Source: Acinetobacter phage SH-Ab 15599. Taken from it: a stretch of DNA of 64,000 nucleotides. The translations under genes and the position numbers were made by a program. Positions 15,655 to 63,949 of this stretch are shown here, piece by piece; within the stretch, counting starts at the first letter, position 1, and the number at the start of each line of letters is the position of its first letter. The stretch lies in sequence record MH517022.1; one strand, 5' to 3'. The notes under the pieces are model-generated. The model searched no databases. It saw only the letters and a list, made by a program, of their open reading frames with translations, and was not told the origin of the DNA.

Positions 15655-15865
15655 TGTTCATTAACTCCCGTATCTGCTCTTGCTGTTCATTATACAGACG
15701 TTTTAATGTTAGGACATCAGATTCAAGACTTTCAATTCTTTGTTTCTGAGTCCTAACAATTTCTCTTGATTTTACAAACTGAAGGAAGCCTTCGGTATCG
15801 TTATTTGATACCGAAGCCCCTTGTCTAATCCATTTATCGCTCATATTAGCCTTACGCCAACGCAA
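15641..15865 (-). CDS. small coiled-coil protein (74 aa)
   Basis: Heptad-rich C-terminus (QKQRIESLESDVLTLKRLYNEQQEQIRELMNN). Lies between the large structural gene and the gp13-like gene, where T4 has wac. Confidence 0.4.
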   Translation of the reverse strand: MRWRKANMSDKWIRQGASVSNNDTEGFLQFVKSREIVRTQKQRIESLESDVLTLKRLYNEQQEQIRELMNNVQK

Positions 15866-18800
15866 TCAAACGCAATTCACTCAATTCAGGGGCTTGGTTC
15901 CCTTCAGACGCAAACAGTTCAATGCGAAGTTTTAATCCCAAGAATGTATCTTGAGTATTAATCTCATATTCAGCTTCATATGAATCGGAGTTAGAGTTTT
16001 TGAAGTTCTTAACAACAGAAACATCCTTCCATTCTTTGTTTGTCAAGTTCTCATCCCCAGAAGTCAAATCCTTGTATTTCAACTTCACACTAGAACCATA
16101 TGGAATGTTACCAACCAAGTAGATTCTAGCAGATGTTGAAGGGTTGTTGAACTTCATAGAACGGGTGATGACCTTAGCAATTACATCAGTCGCATTAGTG
16201 CTGATACGCGAACCAATTAATTCAAGTCCAGCTCCATCTAGATCAATCATTGGAGTAACCCATTCATTGTCAGATTTCATTGTAATTGAAAGTTTTGGTT
16301 TAAGGTCTTTAGTTGAAATTCCATCAAATGGCATATCAGCTAATGTATCAGGTAATAGACCTGTGAATGTTGCAGCTGTTCTGTTACCTTGTTGATGAGT
16401 TAACAAGTCAAGAGATAAAGATGTACTATCAAGAACAAATGTTCCTAACCAAGGGCACACTTTATCAAACGGGTTGTTACAAGCTACCATGATAGCGCCA
16501 CCGCCAATGGAACCGCTAACCAAAGCAGGGGTAGTTGCATCAATAGTGAACCAGTCTACATCTGCAGTTACAACGCGTTGTTCTTGGTTGATACGCGATG
16601 CATCAATTCCATTACCAGATACTGCTCCAGTAATAGAGACGTAATCGCCCACTTTCAGACCGTGACCAAGACACTCTACTTTTAACGAAGAGCTTGCTTC
16701 TGTAGTAGAGATTGAGTTGTATGGTAAAAGTCTTGCGCTTGGTGAAGAACCTTCTAAAACGGCGGTATAAGCTGTATCGGTCTTAAATTTACAACCCATG
16801 ATCTTGAATTTCAAGTCTTCTAACTGATTAGGAGTCCAAGTTTGGCCGTTAGAAGATACAAAGAAAACGCCAGTATGAGGTTGTTTAGCAACAACATAGT
16901 TGTTAGCAAGATCAATCTCTCCCATACGAGCTAAGAATACATTGTACTCTTGGGTATCTGCAAGCAATACAATAGCATATTCCTTATCTTTCTCAAGATA
17001 AACAGGATCAGAAAATTCAAATCTTGTTGCTACTGTACCGTTGTTTGAAACATTCACTTGGTCTGGGTTCTTAATAACTTCACCAAACATCAACACTTCA
17101 TTTGAAGGAGTACCATTGTATACATTACGGATTTGCAATGTCACAGGGATACTACGGGCTTTAGTTGAGAAGTAAATGTCAACTGCTTTAATGAACCCAC
17201 CTCCATCTTTAGAGATAGAGAATGTTTGAGCAACAGGGTCACGATTCCAACGCGCTGTAACTCTTGATGAAGATGAAGTCCATTTGGTTTGGATTGCTCT
17301 GAGGGTTTTAGTTACAGTTGTAGTCTTTTGACGAGTCTCTAACTCACCGCCAGATACAAAGGCCGCTTCGCCCATAGTGAAGTTGTTATTTGGATCATCA
17401 GAGTTTGTCTGAGAATCTGTGAACTTCAGAATATTCGTACCATTCTTGAAGCGGAAGTCAGTTGTAGTAGGGATTCTAAATGTTCCTGTTGCTGAGCCGT
17501 TAGCATCAGTTACAATAGCTTCACCAAAGTCCTTACCAGTTTGGCGACACTGAGATGATACTGCAATACCTGAGAAGAATGGATACAAACGAGTCAATGG
17601 TTTGAAACCTTTCAAATCGAATGAAATATCAATACCACGCATGTAAGGTAATACTTGGATTGATACTCTTGAATCAGTAACCTTAACACTTGTACTTTCT
17701 TGAATCTTAGTGTTTACAAATGTATCAGTTGTAGTCTGAATAGTCTCACCTAGACGTTGTGTCAAACGAGTGGTTTCAGATACGACTGAAGAGAGAAGTT
17801 CATCACCTGCTTTCAAACCATTAGTCAAATCATTTGTTTCATTCAAAACGATAGGTTTGTTGTATACAGTATCTTTCCAGAAATCCTGCATTGGATTCAA
17901 AGTAACCGTACCGCCCCAAGTGAATACTGCAAATGGGTTGATGTTAGATGTAGTTGTAGCATAAACCTGAGAAGCAAACTCTACAAGATCATACGGTAAT
18001 GTAACTGTTGAACCATGTTTAACGCCACCACTCAAATATGATAGATCAATACCATTTTGTACGATAGGAGCAGAAACAATTCCTTCTTCAGTATCAATAG
18101 ACGCAGCCCACTCTTGATCTAAAATATCAATCAAACGGAAGTCTTTGAAACGGTCAGCAGCAATACCGTTTTTGTAGCGGTTGTTACCTGTATCTGGATC
18201 CAGAATCTGAGTGCGTTCAGCCTTGGTCTCTACTTGACTCAATGTAGCATAATATTCAACATTTTTCAAGCGTTGATCGATCTTACCAATATCAGCCATT
18301 GTATAGCGTCTATTCTCGACAACACTAGCTTTCACAGACAGAATTGTATCTGTATAAGCAGGAATATTGAGTTGATATAGAGCCATAGAGTCAGCAGGTA
18401 TTTTTGGAGCTACAGGAGTCTCAGATGACGTACCCTTAGCAACAGAATAATTTCCTGCAGCTGAAACGTACAAAATGTCAATACGTGGCAAGAACATTGT
18501 TAAATCAATACGCACGTTATCATTTGGATTAACAATATCATAAGCAGTAGGCAAGTTCGTGAAACTACCGTTAGAAGTCTTCAACAGACGGAAATCAATA
18601 CAGTCAGCAAGGCTGCGCAATACTCGGTCTGAAGACTCTTTAGACGTTGGAATATCAGTACGTGGAACATTATATGAATCTACGCAGAAGAACTCTCCTG
18701 AGTTAGAGTGTTCAAAGTATTCATAAGTCACAGTGATGTTAGCAGTAACAGTACCAGATGTTGAAATCAAAGAACCAGTTTCATACCAGTTAGGGCGTTG

Positions 18801-20663
18801 ACCGTCAAAGAATGTAAACCCTGAAGTCATATCTAAACCACTATCTGTATTGATAACTGAAACAATACGATAGATGTCAGCTTTTGAAAGACTAACAGAA
18901 GACGCATCATTCAATGAAAGATTTTCAGTCGTCTCTCTGAGCGTCTTTGTCTTGTATGTTGGGTTGGTTTTGATGATTGTAGCAATTACACGCAAAGCAA
19001 CGCCAGCATATGAATTGCCGTAGTCAACATTCAAAACTTTACCTGTAGGTGAACCACCTAATGCTAAACCAGTTACAGGTAGAGTTCCAGAACCATTTTG
19101 ACAAACAAGATAGTCCAGAGAATTGATAGAATTAAAGATTTCAGAGCCAGTTAAACCAATTGAAGATTTACCCGTAGCATCTAAAACGATATCAAAAGAA
19201 CGGGTAACATTGAATGTAACATCTAGGCCACCAGTTCCAGTTAATGAACTAACATTTGCATATGGCAGAGGGAATAACAAGCTGTCTACCGTACCACCGA
19301 ACACGCTAGAAACAACTAATGAAGCCTCGAATGTATCTAGAGTTGAAAAACTAGCAACAATACGTTTTACGTTGGAAAACGCTTGGTTAGCGTTCATCTT
19401 GATATCCATTAGATATAATACAAGATTTTCTCCATCGCGTTTAGCAGCACGGACTTTACAAGTCCCGAGAATTGTATTTGCATCATCTACAAGGTTATGA
19501 GTTCTGGTGAGATCCAGTTTTGGCAAACCTTTGATTACACTGGTTACAATATAAGAACCGTATTGAGATTGTACTACACCATTGTTGATGATTTTGGTAT
19601 CTCTGGCCTTCTCTACAACAACATCTTTGTAGTTAGAAATTTCATGACGGTAGCCCTGAACATAAGAAACGCCACGTTTCAAACGCATAACCATCAAAGA
19701 CTCATTACCACCTTCAACTGGAGTATACAATCCATCGACATGTGATTCATCTCGAATATGGTCTAAAATCTCAACAGGAGGGTGAGTGACGGTGTAGTTA
19801 CCAGACTCTTCATATGTGCGTTGAGCCAAGATGTCATTAAAAGCAGCATATTGAGTAGTATCATTGACATTCAACACATCGCCTTCTTGAATTTCTACAA
19901 TTTCAATGAATGTATCATCTTTAGCAGAACGGTCAATTGCTTCAAGACTTAATGAGAGTTTAAGACGACATGCCCCTGCCCCCTTGTAGTTAGGTTCACC
20001 AGAAGCGTTAGAGAATAGCGATGCATCCATAGTCTCATCAATGATTTCTTCATGAATTCTGAAGCCAACCAATTTTGAAGGAGACGGTTCTGGGATCAAG
20101 ATAGATTGAGCTGGAGACAATACAAATGAACCGTTTACAAAATAAACACCTTCAATGATACCAGCATAGAAGCCTTTTGACTTTTCAGCAATAACAGCTG
20201 TAGTGATATCAACTTCAGTACCGTCAATCAATTGAGAAACAATTAACGATTCTTCAAGAGCATATTCTGTTTTAGTTTCGCCGTCTGTATTCAGATACTC
20301 AATAGCAAACCAACCTGTATTACCGCTGATATCCAAGTATTTTAAGATTTTAGCGCGTAAGCCACTGTTTGCTCCACGAAGATAAAAATCATTGCTCTGA
20401 GACAAGAAATTAGATTGGAAATCAGTTGGGAACAATACACGTAATGTATCTTGATCTTCACGAACTGATACTGAACCCTCACCTACAACAGATCCAGATT
20501 TGAAGAAGTGTGAACCAATACGATTAATTTGTTCTTCAATGATTGACTGCAACTGGTTCATTTCACGAACTTGCACAGAACGACCTGGGCGGAACAATAC
20601 CTTGTGGAATCCCTTACTTGGATCAAAGTCATCGTAGAAAGGTGATGCGTTTGTGTCAACCAT
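15852..20663 (-). CDS. giant virion structural protein (1603 aa); baseplate or fibre component
   Basis: Very long ORF rich in T, S, N and G inside the structural module. Followed by a terminator. Confidence 0.7.
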   Translation of the reverse strand: MVDTNASPFYDDFDPSKGFHKVLFRPGRSVQVREMNQLQSIIEEQINRIGSHFFKSGSVVGEGSVSVREDQDTLRVLFPTDFQSNFLSQSNDFYLRGANSGLRAKILKYLDISGNTGWFAIEYLNTDGETKTEYALEESLIVSQLIDGTEVDITTAVIAEKSKGFYAGIIEGVYFVNGSFVLSPAQSILIPEPSPSKLVGFRIHEEIIDETMDASLFSNASGEPNYKGAGACRLKLSLSLEAIDRSAKDDTFIEIVEIQEGDVLNVNDTTQYAAFNDILAQRTYEESGNYTVTHPPVEILDHIRDESHVDGLYTPVEGGNESLMVMRLKRGVSYVQGYRHEISNYKDVVVEKARDTKIINNGVVQSQYGSYIVTSVIKGLPKLDLTRTHNLVDDANTILGTCKVRAAKRDGENLVLYLMDIKMNANQAFSNVKRIVASFSTLDTFEASLVVSSVFGGTVDSLLFPLPYANVSSLTGTGGLDVTFNVTRSFDIVLDATGKSSIGLTGSEIFNSINSLDYLVCQNGSGTLPVTGLALGGSPTGKVLNVDYGNSYAGVALRVIATIIKTNPTYKTKTLRETTENLSLNDASSVSLSKADIYRIVSVINTDSGLDMTSGFTFFDGQRPNWYETGSLISTSGTVTANITVTYEYFEHSNSGEFFCVDSYNVPRTDIPTSKESSDRVLRSLADCIDFRLLKTSNGSFTNLPTAYDIVNPNDNVRIDLTMFLPRIDILYVSAAGNYSVAKGTSSETPVAPKIPADSMALYQLNIPAYTDTILSVKASVVENRRYTMADIGKIDQRLKNVEYYATLSQVETKAERTQILDPDTGNNRYKNGIAADRFKDFRLIDILDQEWAASIDTEEGIVSAPIVQNGIDLSYLSGGVKHGSTVTLPYDLVEFASQVYATTTSNINPFAVFTWGGTVTLNPMQDFWKDTVYNKPIVLNETNDLTNGLKAGDELLSSVVSETTRLTQRLGETIQTTTDTFVNTKIQESTSVKVTDSRVSIQVLPYMRGIDISFDLKGFKPLTRLYPFFSGIAVSSQCRQTGKDFGEAIVTDANGSATGTFRIPTTTDFRFKNGTNILKFTDSQTNSDDPNNNFTMGEAAFVSGGELETRQKTTTVTKTLRAIQTKWTSSSSRVTARWNRDPVAQTFSISKDGGGFIKAVDIYFSTKARSIPVTLQIRNVYNGTPSNEVLMFGEVIKNPDQVNVSNNGTVATRFEFSDPVYLEKDKEYAIVLLADTQEYNVFLARMGEIDLANNYVVAKQPHTGVFFVSSNGQTWTPNQLEDLKFKIMGCKFKTDTAYTAVLEGSSPSARLLPYNSISTTEASSSLKVECLGHGLKVGDYVSITGAVSGNGIDASRINQEQRVVTADVDWFTIDATTPALVSGSIGGGAIMVACNNPFDKVCPWLGTFVLDSTSLSLDLLTHQQGNRTAATFTGLLPDTLADMPFDGISTKDLKPKLSITMKSDNEWVTPMIDLDGAGLELIGSRISTNATDVIAKVITRSMKFNNPSTSARIYLVGNIPYGSSVKLKYKDLTSGDENLTNKEWKDVSVVKNFKNSNSDSYEAEYEINTQDTFLGLKLRIELFASEGNQAPELSELRLIALA

Positions 20664-49759: not shown

Positions 49760-52381
49760 TTATCCTTGGCAATTCGAGCATTCTTTATCTTCAAACAGTG
49801 TATCTGCTTGAGCTTTATGTTCTTTGTAAAGGGCTTGTACTTCTTTCATACCGCCGATCCACTCTCCGTTCAAGAACACTTGAGGCACAGAACGAATAGA
49901 TGGGTCACCTGTAACTTCAGCCGCCGTTTTACCAACTTGTTGTAAATCAACAAATTTGAAATCAAGACCCATATCGCTTAACATACGTTTAACAGTGTTA
50001 CAGTTCGGACAAACCTTGGTACCATATACAATATTTTCACCCTTCTCTTTTTCTTTCTTCTCTGAATCTTTCAGAGCTTTACGAACAAGAGCTTGAGATA
50101 ATGTTTCAATCTCAACTTCAGGTTTTGTACGGTAGTAATAGAGAGATTTCAAACCCCACAACCAAGCGTGATAGTGACAAGCGAACACGTGGTTGATATC
50201 GCTGCCTGGTTTGAAGAACAAGTTCAGAGACTGAGCCTGACAGATATTAGGTTGACGGTCAGCAGCTAAACGTACAATACACATCTGATCAATTTCAAAT
50301 GCAGTTTTGAAGATTGCTCGTTCTAAATCTGTTAATTGTTTAAGATGAGCTACAGAACCTTCATTGTTAGCAATGTCTGTCCACGTTTCTTCATTATCAA
50401 TACCGTATTTTTGGAGAATCTCCTTCAAATACGGGTTGCGGCGTTCAAAGATACCAACACGAGTTTCTTTAGTGTAGATGTTAGCATACTCTGGCTCACA
50501 ACTAGCAGATGTTGTTAACATATCTGCGTTGTTTGAGTTAGGAGCAATAGCCAACAAGTGCATATTACGACGACCAACGTGAGGGTGATCCGTAGATGAT
50601 GCAGCATCTGGACACTCACCGCGCTCAGCCCCTAGACGAAGACTTTCAGCAACAGCTTGTTCTTTGATAGAACGGAACAAATCAATATTGAATTGTTTAG
50701 CTTCAGGAGACTCGAAAGGCATACCATGTTTCTGGAATGCATAGTGAAGACCCATTACACCAAGACCGATAGAACGTTCTTGTTTAGCTGAGTTAATCAC
50801 TTTATGTAATGCTAATTTGATCAATTCGCGATGACGCGGATTTGTATAACGGTTAGCAATCCAATCGGCGGTACGAATGAAGTGTTCAAGAGCGTTGTCC
50901 AAAGCGCGGACTAAGTCACCAACTAATGTAGGAGCCCACACGTCTGAATATTCGGCATTAAGAGAAGATAAACAACAAACTGGAGTACGGTCATCATTAG
51001 CAGGTAATGTAATTTCAGTACAGTTTGAAACTAACAACATCTTGTGGCTATGACCTTCACCACTGATGCTGATATAGAAGTTATGGTTGTCTTCAACTTC
51101 TAAACAATAAACTTCTTTTATTGCGCCGTCAAAAATTAGTTCAGCAACAATTGGATCAGAGTTTACATTTGATACATTACCATTGCGATACAAACGAGCA
51201 TCAAGACGTTTACCAATAGAATCTTTGGCTTTTACGCGGTGACCCTGAGTTGTAAACAATTCGTGATCTTTGGTACATTGAAAACGTTCACCAGAGTTTA
51301 GAACAACTGTAACAAGCTCTTTACGACCTGTTAAACGTGCAGTTGCTGTCTTCACTTCTGGGATTACTCGTCCACCAACTACTTTCCCTGACCAGACTTT
51401 GAAAGGAATTGAACCAGATGATTCACGAGCCAATTGTTTAACTGTAATTGGTTTACGACCGTCAGCTACCATCACCAATGTATCTTCAGATAAACAAAGG
51501 TTTGATGCGTATGAGTAAAGACCTAGACGCTTTTGAGCTTCTGGTAATGCGCGGTTAGCATTTCCGCGGAAATACATAAACGGTTCGCCAGTACGTCCAC
51601 GCTCAGTGAGCATAGATTGGAAGTATTCAGCTGGGTTTACTGTATCAATTACGCGTTTAGTATGAGGGTCGATCAAGTGATATTCTTTTTCGCCGTCACG
51701 GATACGTTCCATCAAGTCGTCATCAATAGAGAACCCGATATGAATGTTCTCAGCCTTACGGTTTGAGTCACCTGTTGGAGTACGAATTTTCAAGAACTCT
51801 TTAGCTGAACCGTGGTTAGCAGATAACCACGCAGCTTCAGCTCCGCGACGCACTTTACCTTGTTTCCAAGCTAAGATAGAAGCATCATCTTCAATTACAA
51901 ATGGAATTGGGCCAGGGCTTTTATCAGATACATAACGGACATCAAAATATTTCCCGATGCCACCGCCGATGACAGAGAGTAAAGATGTTTCCAATTTGCC
52001 CATAAGCAAAGATGGGATTGAGTCACTAACCATTGGTAGGAAACAACTGATGTTTTGTGATCCGTTATGTTCGAAATCATCTTCATGATCCCAAATAGGT
52101 AAACTTTGATTTGCCATTCCAGCTACCCAAATTTCTTCTTTGAGAAGAGGCGCATTGGAAAGCATTGGAGAAGACCACATGAAATGTAGTAAAGAGTTTG
52201 CATCATATAGGCGTTGTGCATGAGCTAAGTCATCAGACCAAGCCACGCAAGCTCGGGCTAGTCGCTCTTGTATTGTTTCTTTTCCACTTGTGTAGAATCC
52301 CTTGATTAAGTCTTTAGCAGGTTCTGTAAGGAGTTCATCTCGACTATCGTCAATTTGAATTCCAAGATAAACACGTGACAT
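49760..52381 (-). CDS. nrdA: ribonucleotide reductase class I alpha subunit with an in-frame mini-intein and a C-terminal glutaredoxin-like domain
   Basis: Catalytic-site sequence SNL|C..TEI is split by an intein. C-terminus VCPNC...VPQVFLNGEWIGG is a glutaredoxin fold. Confidence 0.9.
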   Translation of the reverse strand: MSRVYLGIQIDDSRDELLTEPAKDLIKGFYTSGKETIQERLARACVAWSDDLAHAQRLYDANSLLHFMWSSPMLSNAPLLKEEIWVAGMANQSLPIWDHEDDFEHNGSQNISCFLPMVSDSIPSLLMGKLETSLLSVIGGGIGKYFDVRYVSDKSPGPIPFVIEDDASILAWKQGKVRRGAEAAWLSANHGSAKEFLKIRTPTGDSNRKAENIHIGFSIDDDLMERIRDGEKEYHLIDPHTKRVIDTVNPAEYFQSMLTERGRTGEPFMYFRGNANRALPEAQKRLGLYSYASNLCLSEDTLVMVADGRKPITVKQLARESSGSIPFKVWSGKVVGGRVIPEVKTATARLTGRKELVTVVLNSGERFQCTKDHELFTTQGHRVKAKDSIGKRLDARLYRNGNVSNVNSDPIVAELIFDGAIKEVYCLEVEDNHNFYISISGEGHSHKMLLVSNCTEITLPANDDRTPVCCLSSLNAEYSDVWAPTLVGDLVRALDNALEHFIRTADWIANRYTNPRHRELIKLALHKVINSAKQERSIGLGVMGLHYAFQKHGMPFESPEAKQFNIDLFRSIKEQAVAESLRLGAERGECPDAASSTDHPHVGRRNMHLLAIAPNSNNADMLTTSASCEPEYANIYTKETRVGIFERRNPYLKEILQKYGIDNEETWTDIANNEGSVAHLKQLTDLERAIFKTAFEIDQMCIVRLAADRQPNICQAQSLNLFFKPGSDINHVFACHYHAWLWGLKSLYYYRTKPEVEIETLSQALVRKALKDSEKKEKEKGENIVYGTKVCPNCNTVKRMLSDMGLDFKFVDLQQVGKTAAEVTGDPSIRSVPQVFLNGEWIGGMKEVQALYKEHKAQADTLFEDKECSNCQG
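51023..51496 (-). mobile_element. mini-intein (about 158 aa, no homing endonuclease domain) inserted just before the NrdA catalytic cysteine
   Basis: Block A CLSEDTLV, Block B TKDHELFT, Block F VYCLEVEDNHNFYI, and C-terminal ...LLVSN|C. Flanking exteins rejoin as YSYASNL-CTEITLP, the conserved RNR active-site loop. Confidence 0.75.
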
Positions 52382-55525: not shown

Positions 55526-58327
55526 TTAAACCATTTGGATTATTAAATTTCCCGATTCCACAGTCACAGATACAGCGGTTGGGTTAGTGTGGTAGACAGT
55601 GAAATTGTCAACAGAAGTTACTTCGGCATAAAACCTAGTTCCGCCTTTCGGTTTATCCATTTCAACCGCTAATCTATCGCCAAGTTTTAAACCAGTTATA
55701 GTTCCTGTTCGAGCTACAACTGTAGCTCCCGCGGATAAAGCTGCAGGAGAATACAATAATTTTACTGGCTTAGCTTCTATTACTCTTAAAACAGCATCTG
55801 TACCGACTACACCAGCTTGCTCCACTATATACTTATAAGGCGCACCAGCACCAGCGCCTAAATTATAAACATAATCATTAGCACTAACCTTGGCGCCAGT
55901 AATTAAGGTTCCAGCCTGCCATTCTCTGTTTCGCCCAGAGCACTTAATAGAAGAACCACCGCTTACTGCAACTGTAATCGTTCCAGATACAACATCATAA
56001 GAATCTAATTCTACTGGGTCTGAAATGGGATTAGAGTTGTTTACTAGGAAATTGTTTGAATAAGAAGGATCCAATACCATAATCTTTCCTACTTTTAGCG
56101 TTTTGCCTAAACTAGCAGTATTAGCAGATGAAACAACGCAGTAAGAATTTCCATGTTCAGTTACGATAATCTCATCAACTATTGTATTTAAAGCTAATTC
56201 ATTTCTTAAAGCTGTTCTAAATACGGTGTTGGAACTAGTGACTCCATATCTAATACATTCCATTCTACCCACTTTAGTATTTTTGGGTAATTTGGATGGA
56301 TCATTACCCGTTCCGATGACATTAACTGGATTAATTTTGGAATCTTTACTTATTAAATTATCAACTACTACATTGTTGGCTAAATTTCTGACGTATAAAC
56401 TAGAATAGAAATATTGACTTTCTGCATTTATTACTCTAAAATTACCTCCTCCGTTATCTCCGTTTATGAGAATATTAGACGCATTTCCAGTTTCTAATTT
56501 GCCAAAACAATTAATTGCCTCCACTAAACCAGAAATCTTAGCTAGATAATCGTCTGGAGTTGGAGTAAAACCAGCATTAGTAGTATCGTCAACAGTTGCA
56601 TATAGAGCATTGCCAAGCATACCTATACCTAAAGCATAAGAAGTTCCTTGTATTGAACCCACTTGGATATTTCTCATTCTATTCCTCTTGTCTTTCTCAT
56701 TTGCGTAAGCAAATCCTAGATCGCCAGCAGTTAAGAATAATAGACCTTTCCCTGTTATAGTATGATCCAAAATAGATCCTTCAATCTTTCCAATCTTAAT
56801 ATCGTAACCAGCAGAAATCAAAACCACTCCGGAATAATCATTAGTGTCGCAAGTTAAATTTCCAGCAGAAATTTCCTCGATTATACAATCGTGAGGGTGA
56901 GTAGTAGGTAACCAACCAACCTTATGTCTGTAGGTTCCGTTGTCATTATAATGATCTTGGAAGTTGCCCCAATGAGCCATAAAGACTCTACCAATAACTG
57001 CAGAATCGCCGCATTCGATCCTCTTTCCCCTAACTAGATTCGCTCCCCCAGCCATCACAAATCCATTACAATTAAAATGCCCCCCCTTTAAGATTAGGGT
57101 GTCAAAATAAAAACCAGAAATTTGTGGTTCTCTATTAGTGAAACTATCTATTCTGACGTGACACTTTTCTCCCCACCCTACAGTTGGATTTCCCATGTCT
57201 ACTGTAAGAGTTCCAATTATTCTAACATTAGATTCCGGAGCTAAACCAGATGCACTAGCACTTTGACTTGCGGCGCCTACTTGCTTTAGTGTTGAATTGT
57301 TACTAAACCATACCAAACCACTTTTAGGTTTAAATTCTTGATTAACTTCGTATACTTTTTCAGAAGTTAATAGAATACCATTGTTAGCTACTGCATAATC
57401 GGAAGCTAAGATAATATCGTCTCCAAACATCTCTGGTAGGACAATTAATTTCGATCTGATATCAAAATAACTTTTAGCTGTAATACCGTTCCACTCAACC
57501 AACTCTGAGTTAGTCGTTTTAAACTTCCAACCCGTCATATCTACATTAGGATTTTTCTTGTTACCATTTACAGTAGAATACACTTCCCCCGTATTGTTGT
57601 CAAGACGGATCACTGCCCCAAACGGATAACCACCTATTTTAAGGAATTTGTCTTCCCAATAGTTCTCATTGGTAACTCGGACAAGATCCAATTTTTCATC
57701 CAGTTTATCTCTGGTATAGGTCTTATTTTCCAATAGCGCTGCAATACCATCTGCACTTAATGTCTCAGATTTAGTATAGACATTCGTTTTGTCAGCTTTT
57801 GAATCGTATAAATCTTGAATAACTGGACTCAAATCTGGAATCTTATCATAAGATGGTAACTGTTCTTGAATAATTTTACCATCTTCTCCAAGCGTAGCCT
57901 TTGAACGCTCAAGTTGATCAGTACGCGTTACCATATCATGACGAGCTTCATTAGCTACATCATTTAGAGCAGTTTCAAATTCTGGATAAGAACCGAGAGA
58001 TGGTAGTTGATTTGTAGGGACCTTCCCTTCAACCAAGTCAGCTTTACGAGCTGCTACATCATCGGTATATGCTTCTGCGTAGTCTTTAGCAGTTTGAAGA
58101 TTATTGGTTAGAGCAAGATCAACCTGAGAGAGTTTGAGGTTGACTTCTTGAATATGTTGACTAATGAAGTCTGGCAGTTGAGATGAAACTAATTTGTTGT
58201 CATCCCCCAAATCAGCTTTTTTAACCAAACCTGCGCTCAATTGCTCCTTTGTAGCAAAGAAGCTTGCAATCTCACCTTCCATGGTGAGTTCGCTTATCAA
58301 GCATTCCAATCTTAGAGTCTGTGTCAT
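55526..58327 (-). CDS. tail fibre / tailspike 1 with a parallel beta-helix-like central region
   Basis: N-terminal repeats KADLVEGKVPTNQLP / EDGKIIQEQLPSYDKIP shared with the other two fibres. Gly/Asn-rich beta-helix-type repeats. 933 aa. Confidence 0.75.
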   Translation of the reverse strand: MTQTLRLECLISELTMEGEIASFFATKEQLSAGLVKKADLGDDNKLVSSQLPDFISQHIQEVNLKLSQVDLALTNNLQTAKDYAEAYTDDVAARKADLVEGKVPTNQLPSLGSYPEFETALNDVANEARHDMVTRTDQLERSKATLGEDGKIIQEQLPSYDKIPDLSPVIQDLYDSKADKTNVYTKSETLSADGIAALLENKTYTRDKLDEKLDLVRVTNENYWEDKFLKIGGYPFGAVIRLDNNTGEVYSTVNGNKKNPNVDMTGWKFKTTNSELVEWNGITAKSYFDIRSKLIVLPEMFGDDIILASDYAVANNGILLTSEKVYEVNQEFKPKSGLVWFSNNSTLKQVGAASQSASASGLAPESNVRIIGTLTVDMGNPTVGWGEKCHVRIDSFTNREPQISGFYFDTLILKGGHFNCNGFVMAGGANLVRGKRIECGDSAVIGRVFMAHWGNFQDHYNDNGTYRHKVGWLPTTHPHDCIIEEISAGNLTCDTNDYSGVVLISAGYDIKIGKIEGSILDHTITGKGLLFLTAGDLGFAYANEKDKRNRMRNIQVGSIQGTSYALGIGMLGNALYATVDDTTNAGFTPTPDDYLAKISGLVEAINCFGKLETGNASNILINGDNGGGNFRVINAESQYFYSSLYVRNLANNVVVDNLISKDSKINPVNVIGTGNDPSKLPKNTKVGRMECIRYGVTSSNTVFRTALRNELALNTIVDEIIVTEHGNSYCVVSSANTASLGKTLKVGKIMVLDPSYSNNFLVNNSNPISDPVELDSYDVVSGTITVAVSGGSSIKCSGRNREWQAGTLITGAKVSANDYVYNLGAGAGAPYKYIVEQAGVVGTDAVLRVIEAKPVKLLYSPAALSAGATVVARTGTITGLKLGDRLAVEMDKPKGGTRFYAEVTSVDNFTVYHTNPTAVSVTVESGNLIIQMV

Positions 58328-58596: not shown

Positions 58597-58620
58597 TAGC
58601 AAAAAACCCCCGAAGGGGTT
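58597..58620 (-). terminator. rho-independent terminator (AACCCC-TTCG-GGGGTT plus TTTTTTGC on the minus strand)
   Basis: Located after the stop of the 58626 gene. Confidence 0.65.
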
Positions 58621-58625
58621 AGTTA

Positions 58626-61019
58626 TTAACTTGTAGCAGTAAAGGCGACTGTAAACCTATGCGGGTCAACCAGCGTCCCCGCTGCATCGCGCCAAAATAC
58701 CTTAAATCCCGCTGCTTCGGTGAAAGAAGTCCATGATCCAGGATATGTTTCAATCATTTGAACTCCATGAGTAGCACCTGTTCCAGTCCCCAAACGAGAA
58801 CCCATTAAGGGTGAGCCAACAACAATATGCCCATTTGTGATTACTGATGTATTTCCAGAAACTCGTTCAACTCGGTATACTCCTGTTGACTCTTTTACGA
58901 TCTGCCATCCGTTGTTATTTTGAGGTGTGCTGAATGACTGATCATAAGTCAGCATCATTGGTGCATAGAATGCACCCGCATTATTTGAGCCGTGGTTATA
59001 TGTTCCCCACTTGCGAGAAAGCTTTGTATAGGTGTCTGATGCAAGGTATTGTGCTCCAGAGCCATCTGCGCCAATAACACGTCTCTTAACTAATGGTGTT
59101 ACGGTAGATGAACTAATGTGCGTTTCATCAATCGTTGCATTGCCAGTCTTAAAGCCACTTGGCAGCATAAGCATTTTTGCCTTATTGCCAGCATTCACAA
59201 TAGCGATACCTTCTGCACTGACTGAAACACCACCATAGTTATTTGTTGGTAAGGAGTCCAAAGTGGGCGAAGTTTTTGATGTCCACCCGCCTAATAGTTT
59301 CGTGTATGCATAAAAGCTATTTCCATAACAGCTATTGGTTCCAGTAACCTCCAGCCAATCTTTAGATGTCTCTGTCTTTAGGTTTTCACACCAAAATTTA
59401 CCAAAACCGCAATGTGCTACTGTTCGAGCCTTGATACCTCCATTCATGCTTTCAAAAATAATATTTCCAAAATCACATCCATGAATATCTCTATCGAAAA
59501 TCATCGAATAGCCATCACCTAACTGGAAATAAATATTGTGGAATGTTCCAGTTGTGCTAACTCGGTTCAATGGGTCTTCACAATAAATTCCAGCATTTCG
59601 CGAGTAATATAGCCAAGCATTTGTGAAATTGAATCCCACAAGTGCTTGCTTAACAACAATTTGATTATAAAAATTAACAAGGGTAATGTGGTCAATATTA
59701 GCTAAGTACCCATCTATTTCAATGAATGATACTTGCTTGCCAGCGCCATTTGAACATCGAGCTGTTACATTCTGGATTGTAGGTCCGCAGTTAATGAATG
59801 CCGACTTGTTTGTAAGTGATGGAGAGCTACCATCCACATCAATACAACCAAGATTGTAGTAAAATTCGGAAACTTTCCCACAACCGTTACCAACCAAACC
59901 CTTACCTTTAAGGTCTACTTGGTTTTTTATTATGTATCGACCTTTTGCACCCAGATATAAATTTTGTCCAGTCAATGGACTATCACAGTAGGCCTGAAAA
60001 GCGGCACTATCATCAGTAATACCATCACCCTTTGCTCCAAAATTATCAACAGTAATAACATTTCCGTTAATTACTGATTGCGACAATCCGAAAAGATCGT
60101 CAAAAATATTCTTTGTAGAGTTAACCTTAACCCATCCCGTCATATCCACATTTGGGTCTGTGGTATTGTTTGGCATTGTATTTTTAACGATATCCCCATT
60201 TTCCAACATTACTCTGTCATTTAGAGCGTATCCACCAGATTTCGATTTCCATTTATAATCAATCTGAGACGTATGATAAATTTTCGATGACCAACCAGTA
60301 GTATTAACGTTTGGATTAGCTGCATTATCATCAACATTGTTAACGTATTCCACTCCGCTATCCAACAATATTCTAGAACCCTTTTTATAAGGCGCAAGAG
60401 TTGAGACATATAACGGAGTTTCGCCTTTATTATAATGAACAATAGCGCTTTCAGAAGCTTCCAAACGATTATCAAAATCATTTACTTGTGCATTGACCTG
60501 TTGTTCAAACTCGGAGAATGTATTATCAATATACTCTCTTTGTTCATTTACTTTGCTATCAACGTAAATTTTTGTATTGTTTTCTGATGTACCGATAGCT
60601 TGCATAAGAGTTTGATTGCCAGCGTCAATCTCTTGACGCACCTCGGTAAACTCATTTGCAATATTTTGTTCAAAATTTACTGGATATGGTAATTGTTGAT
60701 GAGGGATTTTCCCTTCAACAAGATCAGCTTTTTTAGCCAACTCAGTTGATAATTTGGTGTCTGTATAGGATTGAGAGTCCGTTACGGCTTGGGTTTTACT
60801 AGCAACGATATCTTCCTCAATATCTTCAAATTTTTCCGGTAAACCAGCAATCTGATCGTAATCTGGTAATTGAGAAGCGACAATTTTTCCATCTTCGCCT
60901 AAAGAGACGCGCTTGGATAATTCACTATCTACATAATCTTTAGTTGGGAATTCAGACGCAATAACCCCATTAGGGTCAAGATCGTCAATGGCTACTTCGA
61001 TTTTAAGTGTCTTTGACAT
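58626..61019 (-). CDS. tailspike 2 with a pectate-lyase-superfamily beta-helix (putative polysaccharide depolymerase)
   Basis: DNFGAKGDGITDDSAAFQAY hallmark of pectate lyase 3 / P22-like tailspikes. N-terminal fibre repeats. Start may be 61034 (longest ORF) or 61019, which is favoured by the spacing of the CATAAATA motif at 61047-61054. Confidence 0.75.
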   Translation of the reverse strand: MSKTLKIEVAIDDLDPNGVIASEFPTKDYVDSELSKRVSLGEDGKIVASQLPDYDQIAGLPEKFEDIEEDIVASKTQAVTDSQSYTDTKLSTELAKKADLVEGKIPHQQLPYPVNFEQNIANEFTEVRQEIDAGNQTLMQAIGTSENNTKIYVDSKVNEQREYIDNTFSEFEQQVNAQVNDFDNRLEASESAIVHYNKGETPLYVSTLAPYKKGSRILLDSGVEYVNNVDDNAANPNVNTTGWSSKIYHTSQIDYKWKSKSGGYALNDRVMLENGDIVKNTMPNNTTDPNVDMTGWVKVNSTKNIFDDLFGLSQSVINGNVITVDNFGAKGDGITDDSAAFQAYCDSPLTGQNLYLGAKGRYIIKNQVDLKGKGLVGNGCGKVSEFYYNLGCIDVDGSSPSLTNKSAFINCGPTIQNVTARCSNGAGKQVSFIEIDGYLANIDHITLVNFYNQIVVKQALVGFNFTNAWLYYSRNAGIYCEDPLNRVSTTGTFHNIYFQLGDGYSMIFDRDIHGCDFGNIIFESMNGGIKARTVAHCGFGKFWCENLKTETSKDWLEVTGTNSCYGNSFYAYTKLLGGWTSKTSPTLDSLPTNNYGGVSVSAEGIAIVNAGNKAKMLMLPSGFKTGNATIDETHISSSTVTPLVKRRVIGADGSGAQYLASDTYTKLSRKWGTYNHGSNNAGAFYAPMMLTYDQSFSTPQNNNGWQIVKESTGVYRVERVSGNTSVITNGHIVVGSPLMGSRLGTGTGATHGVQMIETYPGSWTSFTEAAGFKVFWRDAAGTLVDPHRFTVAFTATS

Positions 61020-61046
61020 GGGAGTGGATTCCATAAACGTTTGAAC

Positions 61047-61054
61047 TATTTATG
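61047..61054 (-). promoter_or_regulatory. late-promoter-like CATAAATA upstream of tailspike 2
   Basis: Plus strand reads tatttatg. Confidence 0.3.
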
Positions 61055-61069
61055 GAATCCACTTTTCAA

Positions 61070-63949
61070 TTAGTACATCATGCGTTTAATAATTTCGCTG
61101 CAGATGTAGTTCGATTGTAAAAGTTTACCAGCTGCATTAGGGTGTAGACCGTCTCTCAAGAATGTGCCGGCATCTGGGTCTGTTGGATTCGCCTTCCAAA
61201 CTTCTAATTCTTTAATAATTCCAGAATTAGCATATTGGTCAATTACATTAAACCCATATTGACGAGCCATTCTTGCAAGGTTCGTATTCAAATCTTTTCG
61301 AGCTTGTGTCTCAAGATCAGCGCGTTGTAAAGGTAAGCAATAGAAGCAGACCGCATTTGGCCATTTCTGTCTTAAAGTCCATAACGCCCAACGCATAGAT
61401 TCCAAAGTAAGCGCTCTGTTTAAATCATCCAGAGTTGGTTTGCTCATAGCAGTATCAAAATCACCTAGATTCACGCCTGCATCATTTGTGCCACAAGCAA
61501 GTACAATAACCCCTGGATTAAATCCGCTAGCAATAGCAGTATTGATTTGATGAGAAATCTTCTGCCATGTTAACTGCCCCGCATATTCCCTGAAAGCAGC
61601 TCCGCTTCTACCAACGTTCATATAACCGCCCATTTTCAGGGTAACATATGCATAGGTTGGCCAGTTAGGATACCAGTTAGGATCATAATACATTCCATTT
61701 TCAACATCGCAAGTTACTGTAATGGAATCTCCAATCATCAAATAAGAAGCACCAAATGCTCTTGAAACCATTGAGCTGGAACCACCGCCACTTTCGCCGC
61801 CTCTGATGATATCAACGCCGTTTATACCAGATATGCCTGGTTTAAATGCTTCATATGCGGTTGCAACAGTTCCAGATTCGATTTGTGTGGCGCTAATATC
61901 GAAAATTGTAGCAGTACGTTGAAGTAAACTCACTTGGAACCATTTAGCATTTGCTGGAACCGTAATTGTATAGAAAGAATCTGGATTTGGGACTTGAGCT
62001 TTTAAAATAAGCGTATTGTTCGCATCTAGGAATCTGTAATATCTAGGAATTTCTGGGTTTGGTTGAAGACCACTCAATGTAATATTTTGTAAACCACTCA
62101 CATTGATCAAATCTGTCGTAATACTTTGAGCCTGTGGTAATAAAGTACCATCACCATACACTTCAGTGCCCATAAGGATAGTGGCAGGGTTGAGAAGGTT
62201 TTTTGCTATTGCCTCATACCCGAGTTTTAAGTCAGTCTGTTTTATATGACTGCCATGAATACCAATCACATCTCCTTTACTGAATGCAGTATAGGAAGTT
62301 ATCACGCTTCCATATTCAATTTGAGCTGTAGAAGTATTCAAAGGATCTGAGTTACGTTGTTTGATAGACAACTGGAACCAAACAGCGTTAGCTGGTACCG
62401 TAAGAACTCTTTGATTGACTAAACCAATACTCGTTATTGTACCGACTAGATTCTCATCTTTATCTAAAAATCTGTAAAGACGCCCAATTTGAGGGTTTAG
62501 TTGTAGACCAGATATTGCAATTGAAGACGCACCTCTTACATCGATATAATCAGTTGTTACACTGTTCGCCTCAGCTATCAATCCAAGCGTAGCGTGCAAT
62601 TCATATCCCACTAAAAGATTCTGTGTATCCAAAATATTCTTAGTGGTAGAAGCGTAAATTGGGTGGGTGAGAGTTTTGATCGAATTTTTGATTGTATTAA
62701 CAATATTAGTAGTCAATACAGAGTCATCGCTATAATAAGTCCAAGGAGTCCAAACATTTGCTGTATCGCATAAACGCATTGCGAAAGCTTTAGCATTCAT
62801 ACACACTACCATCTGACAAACTACCGTTGCAGATACTGGCAATACAAATAATTGACCCCATTGGTTGGTATAACTTGGTTTATTAGCGCAACTATTCCAA
62901 ACTGTACCGCTCACAAACGTATGAAGACCGTATGTTTTCAGTGAGTTGAAGTCGACTGCTGAAGAAATTACCATTGGATTAAACATTCTGTTAGAATCCG
63001 CATAACTCTTAGCTAAAGCATATGGATCATAAGCAGATTTAGAGAACGCTGTACCATTCCACTGCCAATCTCCGTTGTTAGAGGCAGTTGAGTCATTCGT
63101 TACTGTGATTTTAGAATTGACTGGTAGAGTCGCTTTGTTAGCGTCCATCTCCGCATATGTTTTATAAGCTTTGTTGCCAGTACCAATAGCATTGATCTGA
63201 GCTTGTAGAACATTTTCTTGAGATACTGCTCTGTCTCGTTCTTCTATAATAGTATTGTTAATTTTCAATACCTGAGCGTCGGTATCGGTTTTATTGTAAA
63301 CGTCGGTTATATTAGCTTTGTTCGCAACTTTATTGTTTGTAGAGATCATATATGAATTAAAATCATTATTCATATTCTCTTGAAAATCATTTTGTTGATC
63401 CGTAATTGTTTCAACAAAATGATTTAATTCAGCATCTCTGGTAACGCCATCTGGAATTACAGTAATTGGTAACTTTCCAGACGCGTCCATCTTAGGAACT
63501 TTTACGCTGAGCTCATCGACTTTTGAATCAGTATATTGTTTAGATGCCAACTTCGCTGCGTCAACAGCCTCTTTAGCCCCAGGAACGTGTTTGAATTCAG
63601 TTGCTTGAGTATTTGGTACGCGGCCAGATACCAAGTCGGCTTTATTCTGAAGACCTGCAGTCATTTGTTGTCCGAGATTTTGAGACGCAGTTGCAACCTT
63701 TGTATCAGTCTCATCTCTCAATGTAGTTGCCAACTCATCAAATTTTTGAGTAACGCCGTTTAGATTTTGAAAGTCTGGCAGCTGATCTGGATCAACCTTT
63801 CCATCTTGAAGCAAGTCAGCCTTCTTAGCTTGATCAACCTCATATTGAGATTGGGCTACATATTCTGAAAGAACAATGCCGTCATCCCCGACATCAGCCA
63901 CCACAACGTCTAGCTTTAAATTGTTATCGGCCATGATCAGCCTCTCCAC
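61070..63949 (-). CDS. tail fibre 3 with a C-terminal SGNH/GDSL hydrolase (esterase) domain
   Basis: C-terminal blocks IGDSIT (I), GTND (III) and DGLHPN (V). N-terminal KADLLQDGKVDPDQLPDF repeats. GGAGAGG RBS. Confidence 0.75.
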   Translation of the reverse strand: MERLIMADNNLKLDVVVADVGDDGIVLSEYVAQSQYEVDQAKKADLLQDGKVDPDQLPDFQNLNGVTQKFDELATTLRDETDTKVATASQNLGQQMTAGLQNKADLVSGRVPNTQATEFKHVPGAKEAVDAAKLASKQYTDSKVDELSVKVPKMDASGKLPITVIPDGVTRDAELNHFVETITDQQNDFQENMNNDFNSYMISTNNKVANKANITDVYNKTDTDAQVLKINNTIIEERDRAVSQENVLQAQINAIGTGNKAYKTYAEMDANKATLPVNSKITVTNDSTASNNGDWQWNGTAFSKSAYDPYALAKSYADSNRMFNPMVISSAVDFNSLKTYGLHTFVSGTVWNSCANKPSYTNQWGQLFVLPVSATVVCQMVVCMNAKAFAMRLCDTANVWTPWTYYSDDSVLTTNIVNTIKNSIKTLTHPIYASTTKNILDTQNLLVGYELHATLGLIAEANSVTTDYIDVRGASSIAISGLQLNPQIGRLYRFLDKDENLVGTITSIGLVNQRVLTVPANAVWFQLSIKQRNSDPLNTSTAQIEYGSVITSYTAFSKGDVIGIHGSHIKQTDLKLGYEAIAKNLLNPATILMGTEVYGDGTLLPQAQSITTDLINVSGLQNITLSGLQPNPEIPRYYRFLDANNTLILKAQVPNPDSFYTITVPANAKWFQVSLLQRTATIFDISATQIESGTVATAYEAFKPGISGINGVDIIRGGESGGGSSSMVSRAFGASYLMIGDSITVTCDVENGMYYDPNWYPNWPTYAYVTLKMGGYMNVGRSGAAFREYAGQLTWQKISHQINTAIASGFNPGVIVLACGTNDAGVNLGDFDTAMSKPTLDDLNRALTLESMRWALWTLRQKWPNAVCFYCLPLQRADLETQARKDLNTNLARMARQYGFNVIDQYANSGIIKELEVWKANPTDPDAGTFLRDGLHPNAAGKLLQSNYICSEIIKRMMY

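Follow-up and report, generated by a model that had tools for sequence, protein, structure and literature searches.

Acinetobacter phage SH-Ab 15599 is a large virulent myovirus. A stretch of 64,000 nucleotides (nt) of its genome (MH517022), referred to below as the window, was analysed with a focus on gp197, a gene for a tail fibre or tailspike that ends in an esterase domain of the SGNH/GDSL type. The gene lies on the minus strand at 61070..63934 and encodes 954 amino acids (aa) followed by a stop codon, as established from the list of open reading frames (ORFs) and from database identity. In the mechanical ORF list, the frame extends over 61070..63949 on the minus strand, opens at a GTG, gives a protein of 959 aa and represents the last large minus-strand ORF of the window. 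This GTG lies five codons 5' of an ATG (63935..63949, minus strand; MERLI-MADNN). Because the ATG at 63934 is preceded by a GGAGAGG ribosome-binding site located 7 nt upstream, giving 954 aa, and because the database protein also has 954 aa, this ATG is likely to be the true start of gp197; residue numbers below follow the 954-aa numbering unless the 959-aa GTG ORF is named. A query with the 714 N-terminal residues gave 100% identity to a 954-aa 'hypothetical protein SHAb15599_00197' of Acinetobacter phage SH-Ab 15599, encoded on a contig of 143,204 bp, and the model of the C-terminal domain returned its own entry in BFVD (A0A345AXB5, 100% identical). The protein has the accessions AXF41548 and, in UniProt, A0A345AXB5, and its product name in GenBank is still 'hypothetical protein'. 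A megablast search with the gp197 gene gave no match in the phage collection, and the ORF list contains no ORF of 50 aa or more on the plus strand of 61070..61770.

The 233 C-terminal residues of gp197 (aa 722-954; 61073..61771, minus strand) form an SGNH/GDSL esterase domain, as indicated by Pfam family PF13472, residue conservation, AlphaFold2 modelling and Foldseek structure comparison. A first-pass annotation of the same DNA had placed such a domain at the far end of a tail fibre, and the interval that it assigned (61070..61770) coincides almost exactly with the domain plus the stop codon. The Pfam search that it proposed detected Lipase_GDSL_2 (PF13472) with an E value of 3.5e-15, well outside what chance would give, and its 57.4 bits exceed the gathering cut-off of 32.9; the match covers positions 2-175 of the 178 in the profile, corresponding to aa 734-936 (739-941 in the 959-aa ORF). 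By the usual polarity of phage fibres the C-terminus is the distal end, and the Pfam score, the fold match described below and the C-terminal position together confirm the placement. Blocks I, III and V, which had been described as intact, were read codon by codon on the minus strand and are complete: IGDSIT (aa 734-739; 61718..61735) contains Ser737 as the putative nucleophile (61724..61726), GTND (aa 815-818; 61481..61492) contains Asn817 of the predicted oxyanion hole (61484..61486), and DGLHPN (aa 928-933; 61136..61153) contains the putative catalytic residues Asp928 (61151..61153) and His931 (61142..61144). Block II, RSGAA, was read in the same way and provides the oxyanion residue Gly778 (61601..61603).

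By using ten homologues as input, an AlphaFold2 model of aa 710-954 was obtained with a predicted local distance difference test score (pLDDT) of 80.4 and a predicted template modelling score (pTM) of 0.83, in which strands alternate with helices as in the three-layer alpha/beta/alpha fold of SGNH enzymes. A Foldseek comparison of this model with the PDB yielded 83 matches at E <= 0.001 (best E 1.4e-9), with a probability of 1.00 to many solved SGNH enzymes and TM-scores of up to 0.73 on the target; the best 50 of the 83 matches are all solved GDSL/SGNH-type or related esterases. Among the matches listed are the structural-genomics GDSL proteins 7bxd and 3dc7, the CE2 entries 2wao and 4xvh, the acetyl xylan esterase 7ddy, Est24 (5hoe), the sialic acid esterase 7pzh and, more generally, many carbohydrate acetyl-esterases. 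Over 100 viral SGNH proteins were matched by the model in BFVD, some of them entered as tail fibres or tailspikes. When a profile of the alignment of domain homologues was run against the PDB, it gave only weak SGNH matches (E about 1e-3 to 1e-4, best about 2e-4), and at the sequence level the gp197 esterase has no closely related solved structure. A phmmer search with the whole protein against the PDB returned only single-chain variable fragment (scFv) antibody chains, which were rejected as a linker artefact. About 55 antibody fragments appeared at E 0.001 to 1 in this plain sequence search, since GGESGGGSSS together with 'MIGDSITVTC' mimics the (G4S)n linker and the light-chain 'GDRVTITC'.

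Conservation of the catalytic machinery was found both in close homologues and across a large sequence subfamily. A word-indexed search detected nine domain homologues with 42-72% identity, in which the Gly, Asn, Asp and His residues are invariant and GDS is kept in all six sequences that cover block I. When the alignment of the close homologues was used for a HMMER search against 1.84 billion representatives (clustered at 50% identity), 3729 proteins were matched at E <= 0.001, 1127 at E <= 1e-10 and 344 at E <= 1e-30. In the best 150 representatives, Ser737 is conserved in 149/149 sequences (ungapped), Gly778 in 146/151, Asn817 in 151/151, and Asp928 and His931 in 150/150 each. The Ser/Asp/His triad, for which the first-pass annotation had suggested an alignment check, therefore proved to be conserved at both distances. 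Moreover, the domain ends no more than 10 residues from the C-terminus in 97% of the best HMMER hits (median protein length 624 aa), and several relatives of the subfamily match tail-fibre PHROGs such as phrog_5240. When the whole of gp197 was compared by tblastn with 50,697 phage records, the esterase part produced one weak hit (E 2e-6), in an unannotated faecal contig.

The remainder of gp197, also read on the minus strand, consists of several segments that precede the esterase. The N-terminal region (aa 1-160; 63455..63934), which is presumed to attach the protein to the virion or baseplate, was delineated by BLASTP against the products of the two neighbouring genes gp196 and gp195: identity is 27% over 165 aa for gp196 (E 1e-15) and 25% over 159 aa for gp195 (E 2e-10), and KADLxxGKxPxxQLP-type motifs occur in all three proteins. 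No Pfam or PHROG family could be assigned to the N-terminal 220 aa. In phage CBA120, TSP2 and TSP4 carry N-terminal T4 gp10-like (XD) branching domains. The following shaft segment (aa 161-237; 63224..63454) is fibrous, lies within the match to gp166 of phage nACB2 and has no Pfam hit. It leads to a 76-aa neck module (aa 238-313; 62996..63223), defined by its identity to gp41 of phage Aristophanes, by tblastn and by protein hits. The neck is 42% identical to aa 203-276 of Aristophanes gp41, its sequence (…GNKAYKTYAEMDANKATLPVNSKITVTNDSTASNNGDWQWNGTAFSKSAYDP…) recurs with 40-75% identity across many receptor-binding proteins of Acinetobacter phages and prophages, and tblastn hits to it were obtained in several Acinetobacter phage fibres. 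The heads carried behind this module include SGNH, BNR_2 sialidase-like, SASA sialate O-acetylesterase and GH43-like domains. Judging from these occurrences, the neck seems to serve as a universal adaptor to which interchangeable heads are joined.

The exchangeable head begins with a beta-rich domain (aa 315-405; 62720..62992), recognised from the alignment across prophage homologues and from AlphaFold2 (segment pLDDT 73-85). It is followed by two beta-sandwich repeats that resemble carbohydrate-binding modules (CBMs), repeat 1 at aa 427-564 (62243..62656) and repeat 2 at aa 573-709 (61808..62218), which were identified by internal duplication together with AlphaFold2 and Foldseek. The two repeats, of about 138 residues each, align with a Smith-Waterman score of 262 versus 30 +/- 5 for shuffles. 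The AlphaFold2 model of the middle region (aa 310-725) is of low confidence (pLDDT 62, pTM 0.31), and the Foldseek hits of the repeats, namely tandem CBM51/CBM22, Vip3 CBM domains, an R-pyocin fibre and the phi812 baseplate protein, have TM-scores of 0.2 or less; they give a hint that the tandem repeats may be carbohydrate-binding beta-sandwiches. A Gly/Ser-rich flexible linker, GGESGGGSSS (aa 712-721; 61772..61801), which was read from the sequence and has a pLDDT below 50 in both models, lies between the repeats and the esterase.

gp197 is the first of three tandem minus-strand genes, the other two being gp196 (58626..61034) and gp195 (55526..58327). The three genes have related N-termini and different heads, as in the multi-tailspike clusters of Ackermannviridae-like phages. 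Tail-fibre families of PHROG are matched by the gp196 head with an E value of 7e-217 and by the gp195 head with 2e-273, and A. baumannii podoviruses and myoviruses carry tail-fibre (tailspike depolymerase) genes that are approximately 84% identical in DNA to the stretch over the gp196 head. In the literature, gp196 has been assigned to K2 (phiAB6-like) and gp195 to a K77-like specificity (PMC11126041). Within the collection nACB2 came closest, being 75% identical over 23% of a query of 25 kb. The spacer between gp197 and gp196 is 35 nt long and has no terminator-like site, which suggests that the two genes may be co-transcribed. The tail-fibre setting proposed by the first-pass annotation agrees with the paralogy of the N-terminus to both adjacent tailspikes, with the 40% identity to nACB2 gp166 and with the occurrence of relatives in tail modules, and gp197 may be classified on these grounds as a virion-attached receptor-binding protein with an N-terminal anchor.

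Proteins that share the same head (beta domain, two repeats and SGNH domain; 44-67% identity) have unrelated N-termini in the alignment. The head is present in an A. calcoaceticus prophage whose tail module is of the siphovirus type and where the gene lies between a gene for a Phage_BR0599-type protein and genes for an NlpC/P60 and a gpJ-like protein. It is also present in A. baumannii prophage remnants and on a contig where a T7-type terminase gene occurs together with genes for a holin and an endolysin. In metagenomic siphoviruses, gpJ-like genes are followed by genes for more distant relatives that correspond to the esterase domain only. Judged by these alignments and gene contexts, the head is a mobile cassette that is swapped among myo-, sipho- and podovirus-type Acinetobacter phages.

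Among the closest known systems is that of nACB2, which has three tandem putative depolymerases, one of them an esterase, and SH-Ab 15599 has also been said to encode three (PMC10057805). Like gp197, nACB2 gp166 is the first gene of a syntenic three-tailspike cluster. It is annotated as 'putative tail with lipase activity' and is 40% identical to aa 6-319 of gp197 (959-aa ORF; tblastn); BLASTP of the two proteins did not recover the N-terminal match seen by tblastn, and the tblastn result is relied on here. The two proteins have the same layout, since gp166 also has repeated modules of about 150 aa and then an SGNH domain at the C-terminus, in which GDSIT, GTND and DGVH are intact. However, their heads differ, in that the repeats are unrelated at the BLAST level and the SGNH domains are only about 24% identical.

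Functional precedents are provided by other phages. Gp41 of the A. baumannii phage Aristophanes strips the 4-O-acetyl group from 6-deoxytalose of the K26 capsule, is needed for infection, and makes cells that have been pre-treated with it resistant to infection (PMC8471582). It resembles gp197 in being a fibre or tailspike that ends in an SGNH-type esterase and in the neck that both share, and represents a precedent for receptor modification in which no depolymerisation takes place. On the other hand, Aristophanes is a podovirus with a single tailspike and a known substrate, and its SGNH domain is Ape1/4K7J-like. Gp63.1 of Escherichia phage G7C, as cited in PMC13123978, deacetylates the O-antigen. 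It is likewise an SGNH esterase on a branched receptor-binding complex that acts on a receptor polysaccharide; its SGNH domain differs in being internal, and the profile touches motif-sized stretches only, within aa 271-488 of 851. The subfamily profile gave scores of 25.8 bits for nACB2 gp166, 6.2 for G7C gp63.1 and -1.5 for Aristophanes gp41. SGNH tail fibres of Klebsiella and Acinetobacter prophages follow the same concept as gp197 (PMC13123978, PMC12115436), and two of the Klebsiella prophage fibres are active on p-nitrophenyl acetate (PMC13123978); gp197 differs from them in belonging to a large virulent myovirus, alongside two depolymerases. gp197 itself has been called the third tailspike of SH-Ab 15599, with its first 314 aa resembling nACB2 gp166 (PMC11126041, Viruses 2024;16:771). 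In the same work the rest was likened to Acinetobacter GDSL-type esterase/lipase proteins and an AlphaFold trimer was shown, and the treatment did not include catalytic-residue analysis, head dissection or experiment (PMC11126041).

Taken together, gp197 can be interpreted as a tail-anchored receptor-binding protein whose esterase O-deacetylates an Acinetobacter surface polysaccharide, an interpretation that is given a probability of roughly 0.7. The N-terminal region, paralogous to the adjacent depolymerase tailspikes, would anchor gp197 to the tail of SH-Ab 15599, and the shaft and neck would lead to the exchangeable head with its single beta domain and two duplicated beta-sandwich modules, which probably bind polysaccharide. 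The flexible Gly/Ser linker would tether the C-terminal esterase, in which Ser737 is most likely the nucleophile, activated by His931 and Asp928, and Gly778 and Asn817 would form the oxyanion hole. Such a domain would be catalytically active and specific for acetyl esters, and its substrate would be a polysaccharide: O-acetyl esters would be hydrolysed on the Acinetobacter capsule or lipooligosaccharide (LOS). The receptor would thus be modified and not cut, and the role in adsorption might be to provide a third host specificity or a processive path through the capsule.

Several points weigh against this interpretation. The SGNH fold also spans lipases, lysophospholipases and thioesterases; TesA and PAF acetylhydrolase are also among the fold matches listed, and some relatives of the domain bear the database name 'lysophospholipase L1-like esterase'. 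The model on which the carbohydrate-binding role of the tandem repeats is based is weak. The SGNH subfamily (344 clusters at E <= 1e-30) appears to contain no member that has been characterised or solved, and, by the profile scores given above, the gp197 domain falls outside the sequence subfamily of both proven phage deacetylases, so that their kinship is at the superfamily level only.

A variant of the proposed mechanism, regarded as unlikely, assumes a swinging 'editing' esterase that frees the capsule for the gp196 and gp195 depolymerases, or a non-capsular target such as LOS. Stripping of O-acetyl groups would let the K2-like and K77-like depolymerases cut capsule variants that are otherwise protected. 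A way of working unlike that of rigid tailspike deacetylases is possible because of the flexible Gly/Ser tether behind the tandem CBM-like modules.

Four rival explanations were also considered, each of which is less likely than polysaccharide O-deacetylation. The domain might be a lipid esterase (a lipase, a lysophospholipase or a deacylase of lipid A/LOS) that acts on the outer membrane at the fibre tip. The SGNH members TesA/lysophospholipase L1 and phospholipase A1 are both among the fold matches listed, and lipid-type names have been given to relatives ('lysophospholipase L1-like esterase') and to nACB2 gp166 ('tail with lipase activity'); however, such names are generic automatic labels, and many of the better fold matches among those listed are carbohydrate esterases. 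The cited fibre-borne phage SGNH domains for which tests exist are all acetyl or sugar esterases (PMC8471582, PMC13123978), and the placement after CBM-like modules and beside two capsule depolymerases points to the polysaccharide layer. Action on lipids is thus distinctly unlikely. It is somewhat less probable still that the SGNH domain serves for binding only, in a lectin-like manner, or is catalytically dead despite its intact motifs. Receptor-binding proteins do sometimes use enzyme folds non-catalytically, and in a related lineage a frameshift cuts off the esterase and the fibre gene persists. Against this, the residues of catalysis and the oxyanion hole, five in all, hardly vary among the 150 representatives, which share no more than 50% identity, and such near-invariance is the pattern expected from purifying selection on catalysis.

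A peptidoglycan O-acetylesterase (Ape-like) that aids wall penetration or lysis would have a parallel in Aristophanes gp41 and several prophage esterases, for which models have been based on 4K7J, a peptidoglycan O-acetylesterase of Neisseria (PMC8471582, PMC12115436). It is considered very improbable here: 4K7J is not among the best 50 of the 83 fold matches, the Aristophanes gp41 domain does not match the subfamily profile, and a domain placed distally on a fibre of 954 aa and preceded by CBM-like modules would meet the capsule and not the periplasmic wall. In related prophages, too, the gene belongs to the tail module, and endolysins are encoded separately in the vicinity. The GenBank label 'hypothetical protein' would be compatible with a gp197 that is not part of the virion at all, being a secreted or accessory enzyme whose gene adjoins the tailspike genes by chance, which is the least probable of these explanations. 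The N-terminal paralogy to both adjacent tailspikes, the neck held in common with proven tailspikes such as Aristophanes gp41, the short spacer with its suggestion of co-transcription with gp196, and the syntenic arrangement in nACB2 all argue for a structural protein of the tail.

Other features of the cluster concern its expression. The spacer between gp197, whose stop codon lies at 61070..61072, and gp196 is filled by a perfect 14-bp stem (GUGGAUUCCAUAAA ... UUUAUGGAAUCCAC; 61022..61060, minus strand), with a minimum free energy of -22.3 kcal/mol and a z-score of -5.4 versus shuffles. It is not a classical terminator, since no T-run follows, and may represent an element of RNA stability, processing or translational coupling. 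The stem sequesters the first in-frame ATG of gp196 (61034). A second ATG at 61019, from which translation would begin with MSKTLKIEV..., gives a sequence that resembles the gp197 N-terminus (MADNNLKLDV...) by eye and may be the real gp196 start. The gp196 stop is directly followed by AACCCC-TTCG-GGGGTT (58605..58620, minus strand), a hairpin resembling a terminator, and then by TTTTGC; a gap of about 300 nt separates it from gp195. This hairpin and gap suggest a single transcription unit for gp197 and gp196 and a promoter of its own for gp195; a promoter scan revealed sites that were no more numerous than in shuffles and was given no weight.

A split of the fibre gene was observed in a related lineage known from metagenome assemblies, where it falls exactly at the junction of linker and esterase. 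The 586-aa product (clusters P0011-P0013) stops just after '...SKAF', and on contig L010, the only one in which this was read, the esterase with GDSIT goes on in the +1 frame. The extra base lies within the run GCTTTCCGGGGCG. The split sites are located at L010:2160-2200 and L012:11700-11840 and on L011. The same split is seen in three protein clusters, which derive from no fewer than three sequencing runs, and a single assembly error therefore does not account for it; the split esterase could be a pseudogene, a phase-variable run or part of a frameshift-dependent long isoform. Elsewhere, the window also encodes a 1603-aa protein (15852..20663, minus strand), whose PHROG matches are of unknown function, and a fusion of a ribonucleotide reductase with a thioredoxin-like C-terminus (49760..52381, minus strand).

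The identification of gp197 as an esterase tailspike is correct but already known, as gp197 or its nACB2 counterpart has been treated as such in two articles in Viruses from 2023 and 2024 (PMC11126041, PMC10057805). Phage fibres that deacetylate sugars are known and common, and fibre SGNH esterases are established in Acinetobacter, E. coli and Klebsiella. The present analysis adds the residue-level conservation of the catalytic machinery, the resolution of the head into a tether and duplicated CBM-like modules, the finding that an uncharacterised SGNH subfamily is large and keeps its domain strictly at the C-terminus, and the exchange of the head among phage morphotypes. The head, with its CBM-like modules and esterase, is a candidate cassette for host-range engineering, because it is swapped between myo-, sipho- and podovirus-type phages. 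If active, the recombinant esterase might also be a possible reagent for capsule typing or capsule modification, and the concepts behind such host-range and reagent uses are not new. Therapeutic phages against carbapenem-resistant A. baumannii are restricted in their host range by capsule type, and SH-Ab 15599 would gain a wider or modulated host range from a third receptor-binding protein that does not depolymerise.

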